A stretch of DNA of 62,860 bases, the filler included, from Basidiobolus ranarum (Eukaryota), in assembly GCA_040143965.1 (NCBI GenBank). It is 53 parts of 53 records of this genome, joined end to end, with 100 filler letters (N's around TTAATTAATTAA, not from the genome) between each part and the next. Parts side by side here need not be neighbours in the genome. Positions count along the whole stretch, not along the records: positions 48,759 to 49,842 come from JASJQH010013388.1; 52 more parts are not named here. One strand, 5' to 3'. Position 1 is the stretch's first letter, and each line of letters opens with the position of its first letter. The notes under the pieces were generated by a model. It saw only the letters and a program-made list of their open reading frames with translations, had not been told where the DNA came from and did not search any database. Below are positions 4,673-53,885 of this stretch, piece by piece. The position numbers and the translations under genes were made by a program.

Positions 4673-5966
4673 NNNNNNNNNNNNNNNNNNNNNNNNNNNN
4701 NNNNNNNNNNNNNNNNTTAATTAATTAANNNNNNNNNNNNNNNNNNNNNNNNNNNNNNNNNNNNNNNNNNNNATTAGCAATTAGGTTTTGTTGCATATTG
4801 GCACTTGTGCCCCATAGCTATTTGTAATTTGGTGAAATGTTAGATTTATTGCATAAATTATTCAATATTAAGACTTTATTTTGCCAATAGAATACAACTA
4901 ATAGAAGGATCTAAAAAGGGTAACAAATTGAATTGTAAACAGCAAGAACAGTACTGTCACAAAGTTAGCAAACTGCCATAATTAAGCTTGAAATATTCAC
5001 AGCTTTTGAAACAATCTGAATTACTTTGATTAGACTAACATTGGGCACTTTTCACAAAATAATGAAGCAATTAATTTGAGGAATGGTGATTTTGCTATTA
5101 GAGTTGTTGAGATCTTGCCAAAAAAGAGGCTCAAGTATACAATGAAGTTCAATCATATAATTTTCCCAATTGATTCAAAACTCCAAAGTCCCAGCTAAGG
5201 TAGTACCAGTTTTTTCAATTGTCACATATTCTCAGCCCTTGCTAAAAAATTAGATAAGTTTAATTGCTAGGTTCTAATTATGCTCTCATATAGACTTTTA
5301 CTTGGTTAATTTGCTTCTCTCTCTCTGTCCCTCCCAATTGTTCTCATTGCTTAACAAATGTTATTCATTAACATTTTCACTTCTTCAACACTTCTTTTTT
5401 TTTCACATCAAGTGATGCTTTTTAGCTGAATTAAAAAACAACAATTTCTATTAAGATCCTTAGTACTATTATATTATAATGTTTCTGTTTGAAATTACTT
5501 CTGTTCTACCTCAAGAGTATCATATTATTGCATCAAGGTCTTGACACTTAAACGTTGAGATTTAGTTCTTTGCTTCATTCAGTTTGCTGACTGACTTCAT
5601 CCACTGACACTTGTTTCTGTCAACAGTTTTCATGGATTAACACTTCTTATTTATTAGCACTCTTTATATATTAACAACTTTGTTATTTGAAACTTTTTAT
5701 CTTTGATTGTTTTGTTCTATTATCAATATTCATGTACTGATAAGTTTGATGTGATGACACTTAATTCATTAACATAGTTTAACCTTCAACAACTTGTTTC
5801 TACTAATGATTTGAGTCTATTGAAACTGCTTACCTATTCACCCTTTTGATCCATTAGCACTTTCNNNNNNNNNNNNNNNNNNNNNNNNNNNNNNNNNNNN
5901 NNNNNNNNTTAATTAATTAANNNNNNNNNNNNNNNNNNNNNNNNNNNNNNNNNNNNNNNNNNNNCT

Positions 5967-6518
5967 ACCTTATACAACAGCGAAATTGTCACCAAATCTG
6001 TTTTAAATCATATCCTAAAAAAATTAACTTCCAAACAAGGCGTAGAGTTTGTTTCTAACCTCCAAAAAATCTGCATTAGATATTTACATTGGAAAGGTTT
6101 GTCCACAATATCAAAAGAATGCCATTCTCCAGCTACGGGCCTCAAAAGTATGGTATCCTCAGGAGCCAAAGGAAACAACTTGAACCTCACCCAAATTAGC
6201 CAACAACTAGGACAACAATACATGTACGGTGAACCTGTTAAATGCCAACTCCCCTACAAATATTTCAACGACCTTGACAACCAATTACAAAATGGATACA
6301 TAAATTCTTCTTACGTCAAAGGATTAAATCCATACGAGTTTTTTGTTCACCAAATGGCAGCCAGAGAAGGAATTGTTAATACTGGTGTTAGTACCGCATC
6401 TACAGGATATCTCAACCGAAGAGCTTGCAAACTTATGGGAGACGTAAAAGTTATGTACAACAACACTATTGGCACAGATAATTGCACCATTAGAATTTTG
6501 AATGATGACTTTTTGTAA
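5967..6518 (+). CDS. Virus-like DNA-directed RNA polymerase largest subunit (RPB1/beta-prime-like), C-terminal part; 5' end cut by the contig edge
   Basis: Frame is open from the contig edge: ..LQKICIRYLHWKGLST..MVSSGAKGNNLNLTQISQQLGQQ..GYINSSYVKGLNPYEFFVHQMAAREGIVNTGVSTASTGYLNRR..KVMYNNT, matching the RPB1 F region and bridge helix; no introns; too divergent for cellular Pol I, II or III. Confidence 0.9.
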   Translation, partial: TLYNSEIVTKSVLNHILKKLTSKQGVEFVSNLQKICIRYLHWKGLSTISKECHSPATGLKSMVSSGAKGNNLNLTQISQQLGQQYMYGEPVKCQLPYKYFNDLDNQLQNGYINSSYVKGLNPYEFFVHQMAAREGIVNTGVSTASTGYLNRRACKLMGDVKVMYNNTIGTDNCTIRILNDDFL

Positions 6519-6653
6519 ACTTATTTATTTTTTTAAAACCCATACGTGTCATAAAAAATATTTTAACAACGTCGATTCCTAAAACAAACATAATATTTTT
6601 TTCAAACGAAGATACTCTTGCACGAAAAATTTGTCTACACAAAAAATACAAAC

Positions 6654-7056
6654 ATGAGAGATCCCTACGAAGTATTAGATAGTATGTTAGTATGCAGAGG
6701 ATATAAAAAAGATCCGTCTACATTAATGTACGTTAAGGATAACAAGTCTTTACCAATTTATCATGATATTAACCAAGACCCGTTGGATGTTCTCCAATTT
6801 ATAAAAGACTGTACCGATCCAGACTTTATTTTACTTATCTTGAGTATACCCATGACAAAAAAAAACATAGATAAGTTTAATTCGAACTTAGATTTAAAAT
6901 ATTATGACAAAGTATTTTTCATGGATGAGATTTTAGACGATCCTACAACTAATCCACTGGTTCCTGTACACAGGCTAGCTACCAAAGAAGAATTGGACTA
7001 TTTACAACAAAAGCACATACTTACGAGTACATTGCCAAAATTATTAACCACTGATA
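6654..7056 (+). CDS. RPB5-like RNA polymerase subunit, 3' truncated
   Basis: N-terminal MLVCRGY (compare RPB5 MxxDRGY) and C-terminal NPLVPVHRLATKEELDYLQQKHILTSTLPKLLTTD (compare HELVPKH..LPRIQ.xD); ATG at 6654 preferred over TTG at 6618. Confidence 0.8.
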
Positions 7057-7156: not shown

Positions 7157-8131
7157 CGAAGAAGATGATGGTTTTGTTACAGACTCTTTGTTATAGGCAA
7201 GCATCAGTCCACTCATAGCACTTATGGTAATGGAAGCAGCCATGATTATTGTGAAGTGGAGAGGTCAATCCATTCCTAGCAACCAGGTGTTTGTAGGTTT
7301 TCTTACACTTTTACCACAATTGATTGGCAACAGTTGCATGCCTAAGACTTGGTTAAAGTGGAAAATGCTTGTCAATCATATGACTCATAATCCTTCTGTA
7401 ACTGAACTACCTTTTTGTCCCAATGGTTGTTTGGCTCTCACCGGTAATTGGAAAAACTTGAAGTCATATTTGGTTTGCACACAATTGGCAATTGCTTAAT
7501 CATCTAAATATTGTTCATATTAGGCCTAAATACCATTGATTCACCATGGATGTCATTACCAGAATCTGAAAAGTCAAGGTTTCTTAGAAAACACATATGA
7601 TCATACATTTACATTGGCTCTGGATGGTTTCTCACTAAACAAATATACCATTGGAAAGGCTTGCTGGCCAACAATTTTAACAAACTTAAATCTTCCCCCT
7701 TCTATATGGTAAAAGAGTGATAATACTTTGATACTATCCATGTTGATAGGACCTAAGTCACCAGTGCTGATAAAATCTTTCTCCTTCTGAACAGTATAAG
7801 AGTCATAATATTTTGATACTATCCAACATATCAGGACCTAAATCACCAGTGCTTATATATAGCTTCTTGGAGCCTTAGATTCTGGAATTTGAATACTTAT
7901 CTAATGGGGTTCAGATTGATGAATATTTTACTAAGCTAGTTTCCTTAATGTATTGGTGACACTCCTGCCATCAGTAAGCTTGGAGGTTTTTGTAGGCACA
8001 ATGCACTATCTTGCTGTAGATTTTGTCTAATCAGTGGAGTTGACTCTGTCAGGCATATGCATTACTACTATCCAAATACAACACTAAACTCCAAATTTTT
8101 ATCATCATGAGCCTGTCAAATTTCAGCATAC
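7157..8131 (+). mobile_element. EnSpm/CACTA (Tnp2-family) transposase, degenerate
   Basis: CPNGC, LALDGF, WPTILTNLNLPP, GPKSP, SFLEP, GDTPAISKLGGF.GHN..CCRFC; internal duplication of about 60-70 bp near 7715-7855. Confidence 0.85.
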
Positions 8132-26207: not shown

Positions 26208-27296
26208 TGATATCAGTGATCATGTTGAAATCTGACCAGGCTCTTGACAGTAAAACCATAAAGTTTAGTGTTGTATTTGGATAGTAGTGATGCATATGCC
26301 TGTTAGAGTAAACTCCATTAATTTGACAAAATCTACAGCAAGATAATGCATTGTGCCTGCAAAAACCTCAAAGTTTACTGATGGCAGAAGTGTCACCAAT
26401 ACATACAATGATATTAGCTTTAATAAAATATTCACCTATCTGAACCCCATTAGATAACCATTCAAATTCCACAATCAATGGCTCCAAGAAGCTATTGATA
26501 AGCACTGGTGATTTAGGTCCAGATATGATGGATAGTATCAAAATATTATGACTCTCATACCATTCAGAAGGAGGAAGATTTAAGTTAATTAAAATTATTG
26601 GCCAGCAAGCCTTTCCAATGGTTTATTTGTTTACTGAGAAACCAATGCAAATGCATGATCATACATGTTCTCAAAGAAACCTTGACTTTTCAGATTCTGG
26701 TGGTGATATCCATCAAGTATATTGGTAATTCCATCAGCTATATGTTGAGTACTTTGGTATTGGATTAATGAACTATACTTTGGTGATTTCATCAAAACTT
26801 CATGATGGGAATCAATGGTATGTAAGCCAAATATGATAAATATTTACCTGATTCAGTGATTGCCAATTGTGTGCAAACAGTACATGATTTCAGGTTTTTC
26901 AGATCACTGGTGAAAGCCAAACAACTATTTGGATCTGAAGGTAGTTTAATTACTGAAGGATTATAATTCATATGATTGCTAAGTGTTTTCCACTTGTACC
27001 AGGTCTGTGGCAAGCAACAGTTGCCAATCAACTGTGGTAAAAGTGTAAGAAAACCAATAAAAACCTGGTTGCTAAGATTGGATTGAACTCTCCACTCCTC
27101 AATAATCAAAGCTGCTTCCTTTACTAAAAGTGTCATGAGTGGACTAACGTTTGCTGATAACAAAGTGTCCATAATAAAACCGTCATCTTCTTCTTCAACT
27201 TCTGATATACTACCATCAGTACTGGAATAACCAAGGTCAACATCTATCAGCAAGTCCTAAAAGTTGTCCGGACTTACTGGTTTAACCAAAGTTGCA
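26208..27296 (-). mobile_element. EnSpm transposase, degenerate
   Basis: EEWRVQSNLSNQVF..CTVC..AYIPLIP, WPIILINLNLPP, GPKSP, GDTSA, HNALSCCRFC. Confidence 0.85.
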
Positions 27297-42831: not shown

Positions 42832-43917
42832 GTCAAGATGTAAACAAACTAATGTGTAGAATATGTTAAGGAAGGTCCCAGGAACATGTGTGCAAAGTTT
42901 GGGGCTTCTAGCACAAGTTTGAAAAATCTATATATCTGAGAATTCCTAAGTTGGTAAAAATATTCAAAGTAAATTACAATTGAGAATAATTGATAATATC
43001 TTAGTGAGTTATAAGATAACTAAGTACTAAGCTATATATGACTATATAGGTGTTTTGGCAATGCTAATTTCAACAGATATCACCTATTATTCTCAATGAA
43101 ACTGTTTCAATACACTTTTACCCACTTAGAAGTTCTCAGCTATATAGATTTTTCAAAGTTGTGCTAAAAGCCCCAAACTTTGAACACATGTTCCTGGGAC
43201 TTTGCTTAACACATTCTACATGTCAGTTTGTTTACATATTAACAAAACTATAAATGTAAACTAAATATTCAATAAATCTGTTAAAGTATTTAGGAGCCTG
43301 TTGGAAGTGGTTTGGAGAATTAGAGAAATTGGTGTTTTTCACTTAATGATTTATAGAGTATTCAGTTGACATTTCTAGTTTTGTCATGATCTAAGCAAAT
43401 TATGTGTAGAATGTGTTAAGAAAGATCCTAGGAACATGTGTGAAAAGTTTGGGGCTTCTAGCACAAGTTTGAAAAAATATATATCTGAGAGCTTCTAAGT
43501 TGGTAAAAATATTGAAAGTAAATTCCAATAGAGAATAAGGGATAGTATCTTAGTGAAATATGAGATGACTAAGAACTAAGCTATATATGACTATATTAGT
43601 GCTTAGGCAATGCTAATTTTAACACTCTCCCTCAACTAAATAGTCATATAAACTAATCCTAATACAGGTGTAAATTTCTCAAATTTCTGTCTAGCTAATG
43701 GTTTGATTAATATATCAGCAATCATGTCTTCTGTAGATGTTGGAGGATCTTGACATAATGGGGGTAGACTTTGTGTATTAGAAGCAACTTATGATGGTGT
43801 GCTTTAGTTACTTTACTCTTAAGAGTATATGGTGACTTATACAGTGGAAAAGTAAATCAATTGTTTGAGATATTCAGGAGTTTGTGTAATAAGATAAAAT
43901 AGATAAGTGGGGGTAAT
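42832..43917. repeat. LTR cluster: three LTR-C copies (42832-43075 minus, 43076-43278 plus, 43279-43624 minus), RNase H end, and LTR-D (43738-43917)
   Basis: Direct and inverted internal matches; PPT and ADILIKP remnant at 43625-43737. Confidence 0.85.
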
Positions 43918-46388: not shown

Positions 46389-47473
46389 TGATTGACAAGT
46401 GTTTTCCACTTGTACCAGGTCTGTGGCAAGCAACAGTTGCCAATCAACTGTGGTAAAAGTGTAAGAAAACCAATAAACACCTGGTTACTAAGATTGGATC
46501 AAACTCTCCACTCCTCAATAATCAAAGCTGCTTCCTTTACAGTAAGTCTTATGAGTGGACTAATGTTTGCCAATAACAAAGAGTCCATAACAAAACCATT
46601 GTCTTCTTCTTCAACTTCTGATATACTACCATTGGTACTGAAATAACCAAGGTCAACATCTAGCAGCAAGTTCTCAAAGTTGTCTGGACTTACTGGTTTG
46701 ACCAAAGTTGCATTTTGACCTACATCATTCTGGTCATATAACTGTGGTAACTCCATGGTATCTTGACTTTTGGCAGTGTTACCAAGCCTTTGAGGCAAAC
46801 TACAGTCAGTGGACTCAATGGGAAAAACTAAAGTTGATTTAGTGTACTTATTACTGTTGTTATACACCAGGCTTTGTGCAGCTGGTAGCTTTGTACAGTG
46901 ACCATGCTTGTGATTATTTTTTCTATGAAGCCTCTGGCTTTCATAGCACAAGAATTTGCAACAATAATAGCAGGGCTTCTTTAAATGTTTGTGTTGTGGA
47001 ATGACAAGGATATTGTAGAAAAAAGAACACCTGCATGTAGGGTGGGATTTTAAATATAACCCATCAATGTCATCAGCTGATTCTGAGATGGTGTCACAGA
47101 TGAGTCATCAGGGATTTACAAGATATTTCCAGTAATGGATGGCAATTTTTGTTTATTTTAAGCGGTTTCTGAGCAATTTCATTACACCAAGTTTACCATC
47201 TGAAAATTTTAATGCCATTTAAAAAGCATTCAAAATCTAAGTCAAAATCAGCTTCCAAGCTAAAGCCTGCTGGCACAAGAGGAAAAAAACCATCAAGAAC
47301 AGAGGACTTAATTGATGAGCAGTCTAGCAATCCACTATCCACTTTGGAAGGCATTACATGCCAGAAGCTAACTCAAGTAAAAATAAAGCATTAATCAATT
47401 TACCAGATGTGTTCCTTTCCAGCAATAGTTCAAGTGAAGAGATTGTAATCCCCCAATTACGTAGTAAATCAAT
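46389..47473. mobile_element. EnSpm element: transposase 5' part (minus) and ORF2 5' part (plus, from 47212), head to head
   Basis: ORF 46499-46951 (-) joins the Tnp2 sequence of 26792-27253; MPFKKHSKSK on the plus strand. Confidence 0.8.
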
Positions 47474-47573: not shown

Positions 47574-48496
47574 TTTGAACGCTTTTTGAATGGCATTGAA
47601 ATTTTCAGATGGTAAACTTGGTGTAATGAAATTGCTTAGAAACAGCTTATAATAAACCCAAATTGCCATCCATTACCGGAAATACCTTGTAAATCCCCTG
47701 ATGACTCATCTGTGACACTGTCTCAGAATCAGCTGATGATATTGATTGGCTATGCCTGAAATACCACCCTTATGTGAGAGGTGTTCCTTTTTCTACAATA
47801 TCCATCTCATGCCACTGCACAAACATTTAAAGAAGCCCCACTATTATTGTCACAAATTCTTGTGCTATGAAAGCCAGAGGCTACATAGAAAAGATGACCA
47901 CAGACATGGTCACTGTACAAAGCCGCCAACTGCACAAAGCCTGGTGTGTAACAGCAGTAATAAGAGTATTCAATAGACTTTAGTTTTGCCCATTGAGTCC
48001 ACTGACTATGGTTTGCCTCATAGATTTGGTAACACTTCCAAAAGTCAAGCTACCGTGGAGTTACCACAGTTATATGACCAGAATGATTTAGCTAAAATGC
48101 AACTTTGATTGAACCAGTTAGTCCAGACAACTCTGAGGACTTGCTGCTAGATGTTAACATCTGTTATTCCAGTACCAATGGTAGTATATTAAAAGTTGAA
48201 GAAGAAGACTATGGTTTTGTTATGAACTCTTTCTTTACAGCAAACATTAGCCCACTCATAACACTTACTGTTAAGGAAGCAGCTTTGCTTATTGAGGAGT
48301 GGAATGTTCATTTGATTCTTAGCAATCAGGTGTTTATTGGTTTTCTCACACTTTACCACAGTTGATTAGCAACTGTTGCTTGCCACAAACCTGGTAAAAT
48401 TGGAAAACACTTGTCAGTTGTATGACTTATAATCCTTCAGTAATTAAACTACCTTCATGTCCAAATGGTTTTTTGGCTTTCACCAATGGTCTGAAA
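47574..48496 (+). mobile_element. EnSpm promoter and transposase 5' part; LTR-A inserted at 48497
   Basis: Reverse complement of the 46389-47230 region. Confidence 0.8.
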
Positions 48497-48759
48497 TGTT
48501 GAAATTAGGTAAATAGCAACTCATTATTTAGTAGTTAGTTTATACACATTCTGATTATTTAGTACTCAATTCTGTCATTCAAAAACGTGTGTTTATTGCT
48601 CTAATTGATAGAAATATCAATTAGATCACTTTTACCAATTTTCACTATTTTCTCAAAANNNNNNNNNNNNNNNNNNNNNNNNNNNNNNNNNNNNNNNNNN
48701 NNTTAATTAATTAANNNNNNNNNNNNNNNNNNNNNNNNNNNNNNNNNNNNNNNNNNNNT

Positions 48760-49084
48760 GGTGATGACTTTGCCCAAGTTCCAATCCCCAAACTTACCCC
48801 ACCTGATTCCGAAATTGTCACCCAAATCTCAGTTCGTGCTACTGAATGGCCTGGAGCTACTGTTGCCAACGGCTCCATCTATTTCAAATACAATCCATCC
48901 ACTGGAGTTCTTTCTCATAGAACAACTGAAGGATTTCCCACAAATATGAGCGTGACCCAAGGTAAGATAATGATTATATTAATTCAATATAACTAGCAAC
49001 TAACCAGATTCTATTACTTTTACCGCACTTCAAAAAGATGACAATACCTCATTCATCTTTAGTTTGGACAGTATTCCCAGTTAA
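48760..49084 (+). CDS. DdCAD-1/CadA-like calcium-dependent cell-adhesion protein, C-terminal domain (exons 48760-48961 and 49038-49084)
   Basis: Spliced translation [96 protein letters not shown] intron; closely resembles my recollection of the Dictyostelium CadA C-terminus. Confidence 0.82.
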
Positions 49085-49354
49085 GCTGCCTTACGAAAAA
49101 TAACTTACCTGTTAATGCTAAATTAATGGTAAATAAACATTACTCCCAATTCGTTTTAAGTTCCCTACAATTGCGAAAATTTATAATGGAATGTTTAACA
49201 TTGTTACTTCAGCGTAACTCGGCTCATACATTCAACTAGGGATTGAGACAAGTTGAGCAATAAATTCTTAACGCTAATTTATGGTATATAAAGAACACTG
49301 CTAGATATTGCATGGTTATGCGGGTATTATAGAGTCTTTTTAGAAATATAAGAG

Positions 49355-49840
49355 TTATACTCTAATTATGATCTCAGGTAAGCAAATGACTGCGTCCACC
49401 GTGATCCCAAGTATGCTGGCATTCGCCTTAATTGTCTCACAGATCTCACGTCGGTGGCTTTCATCACCACCGCTATTCAATACTCCTGGCAATAAGCCAC
49501 CCAAGCCACTGTTAGGGCGACCATGAATATCAACCCTAATCAGCCGGTCAAGGCACACAACAGCGTCAACATTGATTCTCAACAATTGACGAACTTTGAT
49601 AGCAATATCTTCGCAACGACCAGAATCTAAGTCAGAGGATTCTCCACCTCCATTGAGTGGACTATTGAGGTTGTCTGGGGGACTAGGAGCTCTAGATGTA
49701 TCACTTGGCAAACTGTCGGTATCTCCAGCTAGTGCCCCAGGTAATTTAGGAATGTTAGAACCATTTGGGATAGCATCACTTGCTGAGCCTCCTGATGAGC
49801 CGTTGGACTTACCGGAAGTAACACCATTTGGCTGGCCCTC
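49355..49840 (-). CDS. Hypothetical Gly/Ser/Pro-rich protein with two C-terminal Cys-paired repeats, 5' truncated
   Basis: Open from the contig edge; repeats CEDIAIKVRQLLRINVDAVVCL and CETIKANASILGITVDAVICL. Confidence 0.7.
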   Translation of the reverse strand, partial: EGQPNGVTSGKSNGSSGGSASDAIPNGSNIPKLPGALAGDTDSLPSDTSRAPSPPDNLNSPLNGGGESSDLDSGRCEDIAIKVRQLLRINVDAVVCLDRLIRVDIHGRPNSGLGGLLPGVLNSGGDESHRREICETIKANASILGITVDAVICLPEIIIRV

Positions 49841-51126: not shown

Positions 51127-52209
51127 TCCCACTACCATGGCTGGTGACCTCTCCACACAGATTGCTACACGTTCATCTGGTCGAACACCAAGCTCAATCA
51201 GCTGATGTGCAAGACGGTTAGCACGTTCATTTAATTCACCATAACTTAACGTCTGATCTTCATATACGAGTGCAGCGGCTGTTGGGTCACGTAAAGCCTG
51301 GTCTTCAAAAAGCTGATGAATACATTGATGCTCTGGATATGGTGTTGCTGTTTCATTCCATGACCGAAGTAAGAGTTCGCGCTCATCCATAGGCAGCACT
51401 TCCAACTGATAAACCGGCATTTGTGGTGTATTCTCCAGTGCTTCAACTATACTCTGTAGTGTTTTTTGCATATAGTTATTCACACGAGTAGAGTCGAAAG
51501 GGTCTACATTCTGACTAGTAAGACCAAGTGCTGTCCCGAAATCATCAACGTCCATAGTCAAGGGGTAGGTAGTACGCTCTGGCAAGTACGAGAGCTCTAT
51601 TCCACAGATCTGGTTACTTCTATTCGACACGCTATTAGTGTGTCGGTAATTTAGCAGTGCGTTAAAAAGTGGTGCACCGGCTGGCACGCCGCTGCATCCT
51701 TGAGCTAATACTAGTGGTGCATGTTCATGCAGGAGAAGTTCAGCAAGATTGGCATGGATCTGACGCACACTATCCTGAACGCTACTACTACTTAAATCGA
51801 CACGCAACGGAAGCGTATTGATGAAAGGGCCTAATGTTTGGTCAGTTCTTTTGCCAGTCTGCATCCTCCCTACCAATATGGTGCCGAATACCACCTGTTG
51901 CTGATCGCTGATACATGCGAGAACACGACCCCAAGCCAGATGACACAAACATGCTACACTTACATTGAATTTCTTGGACTGAGCTCGCAGCCGTTCATTC
52001 AACTCCTGTGATAATATACAATGGGAAATGCTCACATTCAGATTATCTAAATGAACATCCGCTAGCCCAAAAGGTAATGTAGGTTCTTCGATATTACTTA
52101 ACATATCAGTGAAGAATTGCTTGTGTGACTCTAGATCGTCCATACAGATCTGTGCTATTAAATTACGGAACGGTTGAGCTGGAGGGAGAGCATCACCCCG
52201 ACCTTCCAT
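51127..52209 (-). CDS. Non-ribosomal peptide synthetase fragment (dual epimerisation/condensation-type C domain end and adenylation domain start)
   Basis: PFRNLIAQ, EPTLPFGL, VVFGTILVGRM, GPFINTLPLR, HEHAPLVLAQGCSGV, ALLNYRH, then the A1 motif LSYGELNERANRLAHQL; single open frame, no introns. Confidence 0.95.
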
Positions 52210-53494: not shown

Positions 53495-53885
53495 GCTTTT
53501 GAGATTGTCAACCTTCTCACCTAAAAAAACCCCCTTCAAATTGTAATTAATGCGAGGAACAATACAGACCCCCGTGAAGATTCCACACGTATTGGAAGAT
53601 CCGGTACTGTTCGTAGACAAGCTGTTGATGTTTCTCCTTTGAGAAGAGTCAACCAAGCTGTCCACCTTCTCACCACTGGTACTCGTGAGTCTGCTTTCAG
53701 AAATGTCAAGACTATTGCTGAATGCTTGGCTGATGAGCTTATCAACGCTGCTAAGGGCTCTGCCAACAGTTATGCCATCAAGAAGAAGGACGAATTGGAG
53801 CGTGTCGCTAAGAGTAAGTGGTTGATTTCAATTTTGAAAATGATCAAGTTGATACTAATTAAGCATCCGTTTAGGTAACCGTTAA
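53495..53885 (+). CDS. RPS5: 40S ribosomal protein S5 (uS7), 3' part; intron 53814-53874
   Basis: [67 protein letters not shown]; splicing restores the canonical KSNR* end; in-frame TAA at 53522-53524 near the contig edge. Confidence 0.92.

Follow-up and report, generated by a model that had tools for sequence, protein, structure and literature searches.

CadA, or DdCAD-1, is the textbook early adhesion molecule of Dictyostelium development. Its C-terminal domain is reported to dimerise and to hold the protein on cell surfaces, and Ca binding is assigned to the N-terminal domain and the domain interface (PMC7325957). The protein is described as lacking a signal peptide and leaving the cell by non-classical export (PMC2138044), and as a lectin able to agglutinate Gram-negative bacteria and to protect amoebae as they feed (PMC6656538). 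Glockner et al. (2016) searched for cadA outside Dictyostelia and obtained 24 matches, 21 bacterial and 3 fungal, at about 24–30% identity, with Sordaria, Eutypa and Coccidioides proteins among the listed relatives (PMC4931340, supplementary file 4); prokaryotes were the nearest non-dictyostelid relatives, and two independent transfers were discussed (PMC4931340). Here we analyze a stretch of Basidiobolus ranarum DNA of 62,860 bases, the whole of which we call the window. It consists of 53 unlinked contigs of 1083–1093 bp each, sorted by length and separated by N/TTAATTAATTAA spacers. Because contigs joined across spacers are unlinked, only the contig at 48759–49842 (1084 bp, unstranded, N spacers on both sides) serves as context for our subject, the 3' end of a CadA-family gene. 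With moderate confidence, we read this contig as genuine Basidiobolus-like fungal DNA carrying the end of an intron-bearing CadA gene gained by horizontal transfer, most likely from the dictyostelid lineage. What is new is the host: a member of a family already known turns up in an unexpected fungus.

The open frame of the first exon (48760–48960, 67 amino acids (aa), P0001) takes in the greater part of the Ig-like Membrane_bind domain at the C-terminus. It matched Pfam profile PF14564 (Membrane_bind) at E 1.6e-24 with 86.9 bits (cut-off 25) over profile positions 33–99 of 110, and it matched residues 131–198 of DdCAD-1 in PDB entry 1yhp_A at E 1.1e-20. The fragment is a clear member of the CadA (DdCAD-1) family, representing its C-terminal Ig-like domain. 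A search with exon 1 for longer proteins gave nine matches at 63–78% identity, six from named dictyostelids and three without a name. After splicing, the peptide was 72.8% identical to Cavenderia fasciculata cad1 (residues 128–208 of 208), 72.2% to D. purpureum 46027 and 68–70% to the Acytostelium proteins; against DdCAD-1 of strain AX4 (residues 132–211 of 213), 52 of 80 positions were identical (65%). D. discoideum is not among the closest relatives, which are other dictyostelids (Cavenderia, Acytostelium and D. purpureum). Nine full-length relatives agree completely in 29 alignment columns, and the window peptide keeps the same residue in every one of them. A close CadA homologue had been proposed in an initial annotation of this DNA, and these matches bear the proposal out; the DdCAD-1 stretches that it quoted match both the PDB alignment and our alignment row for D. 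discoideum.

The visible gene lies on the plus strand in two exons. Exon 1 (48760–48961) is open at the contig edge and encodes 67 residues, ending one base into the following codon. It is followed by a 76-bp phase 1 intron (48962–49037) of the form GTAAG..AG, with CTAAC at 49000–49004 and a GC content of 0.26, and by a terminal exon (49038–49084) that carries the last 15 codons, among them the motif DDNTSFIF, and a TAA stop at 49082–49084. The visible part contains no stop and no frameshift. The resulting 82-aa peptide aligns without a break across the junction to the C-terminal ends of family members, and in 12 of the 24 proteins that it matched the alignment stops 0–3 residues short of the C-terminus. 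As is usual in the family, it closes a few residues beyond the conserved motif Q-D-x-x-T-x-F-x-F. When ten family proteins were searched against the whole window by tblastn, all ten matched exon 1, and three of them, P0007 (E 0.011), P0032 and P0033, gave a second match in a shifted frame, starting at 49025 or 49034 and ending at 49072. Since exon 2 was matched by tblastn in a shifted frame, the splice is supported independently of the splice sites chosen, and the intron that the initial annotation had placed here to restore the match holds up. The same tblastn search found no N-terminal family match anywhere in the window; the contig begins inside the C-terminal domain. Downstream of the stop is an unstranded, AT-rich spacer of 270 bp (49085–49354; GC 0.32), lying between two convergent 3' ends, whose longest homopolymer is 5 and which has no copy elsewhere in the window.

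A family profile (A2) run over 1635 candidates, predicted proteins only, returned 24 matches. Seventeen were dictyostelid (Dictyostelium, Cavenderia, Heterostelium, Acytostelium, Polysphondylium and Synstelium), one was from Streptomyces, one (P0006) was on a bacterial-looking contig of a metagenome-assembled genome (MAG), and five had no organism (P0009, P0010, P0029, P0034 and P0035). The Streptomyces match is a 116-aa protein with the C-terminal domain alone. Equally close homologues widespread in fungi, a possibility that the initial annotation had raised, were looked for in this search, and none of the 19 matches of known organism (24 in all) was fungal. The sole fungal relative seen was Neurospora APP (PDB 5z6d), at E 0.31. 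The 65–73% identity found here is far above that of any non-dictyostelid relative described so far (compare PMC4931340), and the literature, judged mostly from titles and the openings of abstracts, gave no report of CadA at such similarity in Basidiobolus or in any fungus.

Evidence for residence in the fungus comes from the other gene on the contig. Its 3' part lies on the minus strand (49355–49840; 161 codons plus a stop at 49355–49357), convergent with the CadA gene, whose stop is 270 bp away, and has no match to any Pfam domain. Its product was compared exhaustively by HMMER with 1.84 billion representatives, which yielded seven matches, namely itself and six Basidiobolus proteins (P0045–P0050), three from B. 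ranarum and three from B. meristosporus, some of them on scaffolds of 30–128 kb; none of the seven was from a dictyostelid. The neighbour protein is 76% identical to B. ranarum KAK9759644 over 102 residues, a low-complexity stretch included, and 49% identical to B. meristosporus ORX94181, up to the last residue of the latter. The family combines a Ser/Gly/Pro/Asn-rich region with a repeated Cys motif, C-E-x-I-x(2)-K-x(n)-LGI-x-VDAV-[VI]-CL. A dictyostelid contaminant was considered and dropped on the Basidiobolus-only relatives of this neighbour: because the CadA gene shares a contig with a Basidiobolus-only gene, contamination is disfavoured unless the contig is a chimera. Most likely, the CadA gene is resident in a Basidiobolus-like fungus and was horizontally acquired. 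Location in a fungus, as claimed in the initial annotation, is accordingly the best reading of the linkage.

Composition agrees with residence in a weaker way. The exons have a GC content of 0.46–0.47, close to the 0.4865 reported as the average for genes of B. meristosporus (PMC7466969). At third codon positions the CadA exons and the neighbour each have a GC of 0.37 and an RPS5 exon from a different contig has 0.41, and the order of third bases, T>C>=A>G, is alike in all three. That RPS5 gene (uS7/S5, C-terminal part, 53525–53884, plus strand) offers a host intron for comparison: 61 bp at 53814–53874 on the same strand, of the form GTAAGT..CTAAT..TAG, placed just before the last two-and-a-bit codons, where splicing restores an ending ...VAKSNR-stop. 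It and the CadA intron are of the same style. By trinucleotide composition the CadA contig ranks 14th of 53 in distance from the centroid and is no outlier. Short, AT-rich introns with GT..AG borders also occur outside fungi. For this reason intron shape and GC alone would not exclude a dictyostelid, and host-like composition and introns give weak support to residency, in a comparison drawn from the host side. The initial annotation had dismissed Dictyostelium contamination on just these two features; the dismissal stands as the best reading through linkage to the Basidiobolus gene, and the intron type and GC that it cited do not discriminate.

Related genes also occur on bacterial-looking DNA. 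P0006 (214 aa, PF08964 plus PF14564) is encoded at 639–1283 of a 2666-bp MAG contig (JASLIR010000131.1, locus L002) titled Alkanindiges sp. It is 67% identical to Cavenderia cad1 and 70% identical to window exon 1. Its gene is intronless; GGAG stands about 9 nt ahead of the ATG, a hairpin and T-run follow the stop, and the flanking FAD/amine-oxidoreductase open reading frame (ORF) has its own GAGGA. Together with P0009, P0010 and P0029, P0006 forms a tight clade nested among dictyostelid paralogues. Genes of this type were found in one of 301 genomes of the MAG's family and at one locus in a genome-contig scan; that scan used two peptide patterns only, is no census, and did not recover the Streptomyces protein. 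A scan of metagenome contigs with P0001 gave 596 pattern stretches, of which one passed (L001); it was rejected as spurious, being a high-GC bacterial contig with the pattern in a non-coding frame. The CadA gene of L002 represents either a dictyostelid-to-bacterium transfer or a misbinned contig. Such bacterial-looking homologues show the family crossing between domains of life.

The donor was addressed with a tree of 23 rows over the 81 columns covered by the window peptide, from which P0035 and P0036 were left out, their C-termini being cut short. The window peptide falls inside dictyostelid diversity, and its end branch, at 0.18, is of ordinary length. The bacterial-like clade is part of a larger clade of 12 rows (support 90/91), to which the window peptide does not belong. 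Three points favour a dictyostelid-lineage donor over a bacterial one: identity is higher, the family is old and broad among dictyostelids, and the gene has an intron.

Three other explanations were weighed against acquisition from a dictyostelid lineage. In one, the CadA piece is contaminant dictyostelid DNA fused to a Basidiobolus fragment in a chimeric contig, which we consider improbable. The closest named relatives are indeed all dictyostelid, yet identity in exon 1 reaches at most 78% among the dictyostelids sampled. The contig, from a highly fragmented assembly, is very short, but it shows neither a repeat nor a low-complexity joint, the distance between its two genes is 270 bp, and third-base usage is alike in both contig halves. 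By blastn the contig matched only itself in the window, so no repeat that might drive a chimera is seen. Its GC is 0.411, third highest of the 53, and its CpG observed/expected ratio, 0.60, far exceeds the median of 0.09 for the window; however, other genic contigs are likewise near normal (RPS5 0.94, non-ribosomal peptide synthetase (NRPS) 0.77), so that a high ratio marks genes as against transposons, not foreign DNA. A further explanation is vertical descent, with the gene an old fungal crystallin plus Ig-like family member, of the Neurospora APP family, conserved by chance. Distant fungal relatives do exist, in the form of 5z6d (APP/DUF1881; E 0.31 to P0001) and the Sordaria, Eutypa and Coccidioides proteins (PMC4931340), but fungal relatives are 24–38% identical to CadA or its bacterial relatives, as against 65–73% here, which equals the divergence among dictyostelid groups themselves. 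With no fungal protein in the 24 profile matches, and the 5z6d match being weak and no close relative, APP cannot explain the identity to dictyostelid proteins, and vertical descent is hardly credible.

The serious rival is a bacterial donor: the gene would again be resident and horizontally acquired, from a bacterium with a two-domain CadA-like gene, the intron being gained later. Many Basidiobolus genes have already been proposed to come by this route; the genus is reported to hold many genes of bacterial origin, some of them intron-bearing (PMC7466969). A full two-domain CadA (P0006) does stand on a bacterial-looking contig, and Streptomyces has a protein with the C-terminal domain alone, but the former is known from one locus in the pattern scan and one genome in 301, on a contig perhaps misbinned. 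Prokaryotes have been named as the nearest non-dictyostelid relatives of cadA, with two transfers discussed (PMC4931340); over about 80 aa, however, the window peptide is 72–73% identical to dictyostelids versus 61–66% to the bacterial-like clade and 45% to Streptomyces. Approximately unbiased (AU) tests reject grouping with neither bacterial set, whereas in the tree the bacterial-like clade lies within a supported clade without the window peptide, and the window gene carries an intron. Taken together, we regard a bacterial donor as unlikely, though well above the other two alternatives.

Several observations weigh against acquisition from a dictyostelid lineage, or against any firm statement of it. 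Where the family has two nearly invariant cysteines, the window peptide has V and T; D. discoideum CadA and cad2 likewise lack one or both. The peptide stands in an unresolved basal polytomy, with no supported clade holding it, and the AU test rejects no placement, whether with the bacterial-like clade (p 0.158), with cadA proper (P0007/P0032/P0033; p 0.078) or with Streptomyces (p 0.48). The 81-column tree does not establish the donor, amoebozoan or bacterial. The visible part amounts to 82 residues on one 1084-bp contig, with continuity taken as assembled. No orthologue was found among annotated B. ranarum or B. meristosporus proteins, in a collection that lacks the window's own exon-1 ORF, so that unannotated copies could escape. 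This absence fits a recent or lineage-restricted gain, and it also means that the finding comes without independent confirmation from a second Basidiobolus genome. Any function of the fungal protein, finally, is a matter of homology.

On the preferred reading, of a CadA-family gene gained by the fungus through horizontal transfer with the dictyostelid lineage as the most likely source, the full protein would be about 210 aa long, with an N-terminal beta-gamma-crystallin Ca-binding domain lying off the contig. By homology, the C-terminal domain would seat the fungal protein on cell surfaces, and the protein would mediate Ca-dependent adhesion, lectin-like clumping of Gram-negative bacteria, or both, as CadA does. 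A Ca-dependent surface adhesin or bacterial agglutinin is thus the predicted role. Clumping of bacteria would plausibly suit a fungus that lives in gut, dung and litter, where bacteria abound. More tentatively, we suggest as a possible history that a cadA-type gene moved as genomic DNA from a dictyostelid lineage into Basidiobolus, was kept there under selection, and came to be used in clumping or holding bacteria of gut and dung, or in the adhesion of the fungus's own cells or conidia.

If true, this would amount to the transfer between eukaryotes, from Amoebozoa to Fungi, of a gene associated with multicellularity, beside a separate spread of the family into bacteria. A copy 65–73% identical to its relatives and linked to a Basidiobolus gene would be a rare candidate for gene exchange linking fungi with amoebae, or bacteria with the two of them. 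It would also provide a simple testable case of whether an amoeba-type lectin may be used by a fungus to manage its bacterial neighbours.

Other contigs of the window hold features of separate interest. Most contain fragments of copia- or gypsy-type retroelements. Most contigs of the window, mainly of transposon origin, are extremely depleted in CpG (for example 42832–43917 and 4773–5864), and in some the CpG observed/expected ratio falls to 0.00–0.04. The depletion suggests methylation-driven decay of repeats in the fungus, or C-to-T decay like that of repeat-induced point mutation. An uncharacterised ORF family recurs at 7197–7496 (plus strand), 26795–27256 (minus), 46502–47104 (minus) and probably at about 48180–48370 (plus), sharing '...SPL..L.VKEAA.IIEEW...NQVF[IV]GFLTLLPQLI...'. 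It had no Pfam match, and its best Atlas score (0.89, to animal UPF0489 clusters) was uninformative; presumably it is a transposon protein of the fungus. At 51127–52209 on the minus strand is a 361-aa open NRPS fragment (GC 0.45), with a condensation domain and the start of an adenylation domain. Its best identities, 40–63%, were to proteins of Mortierella, Modicella and B. ranarum and to bacterial synthetases (Mycetohabitans at 63%, Photorhabdus, Pseudomonas). NRPS of bacterial type have been described for Basidiobolus (PMC7466969), and this fragment is one such. One AT-rich contig (GC 0.334) contains a divergent ORF at 5967–6515 (plus strand) with RNA polymerase Rpb1 domains 4 and 5 (E 5e-9 and 6.7e-17), and an ORF without Pfam match at 6594–7055 (plus strand). 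The Rpb1-type ORF could belong to a plasmid- or virus-like polymerase rather than a nuclear one.

Set beside the described systems, the window protein has in common with DdCAD-1/CadA of D. discoideum (UniProt P54657; PDB 1yhp, 2b1o) the C-terminal Ig-like Membrane_bind domain and the DDNTSFIF tail motif, and both lack the first family cysteine. The central stretch of DdCAD-1 has diverged, whereas the window peptide keeps the family consensus there. The host of DdCAD-1 is an amoeba and that of the window protein a fungus, in which the protein is known from its last 82 residues, with the predicted Ca-binding crystallin domain off the contig. The nearest relatives are the cad1-type proteins of Cavenderia fasciculata (P0004), Acytostelium subglobosum (P0002/P0003) and D. 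purpureum (P0007), at 68–73% identity over 79–81 aa and 75–78% in exon 1, with the same C-terminal end point; these are amoebozoan proteins that keep both conserved cysteines, where the window peptide has V and T. The bacterial-looking CadA proteins (P0006, P0009, P0010 and P0029) share the two-domain PF08964 plus PF14564 architecture at 61–66% identity to the window peptide, but are intronless with bacterial-type signals, unlike the window gene, and an organism is assigned for one of the four (P0006), possibly misbinned. More distant is a protein of Neurospora crassa (DUF1881; PDB 5z6d, a 215-aa chain), named abundant perithecial protein (APP) (PMC11446221), to which query residues 2–61 aligned weakly over chain residues 128–184.
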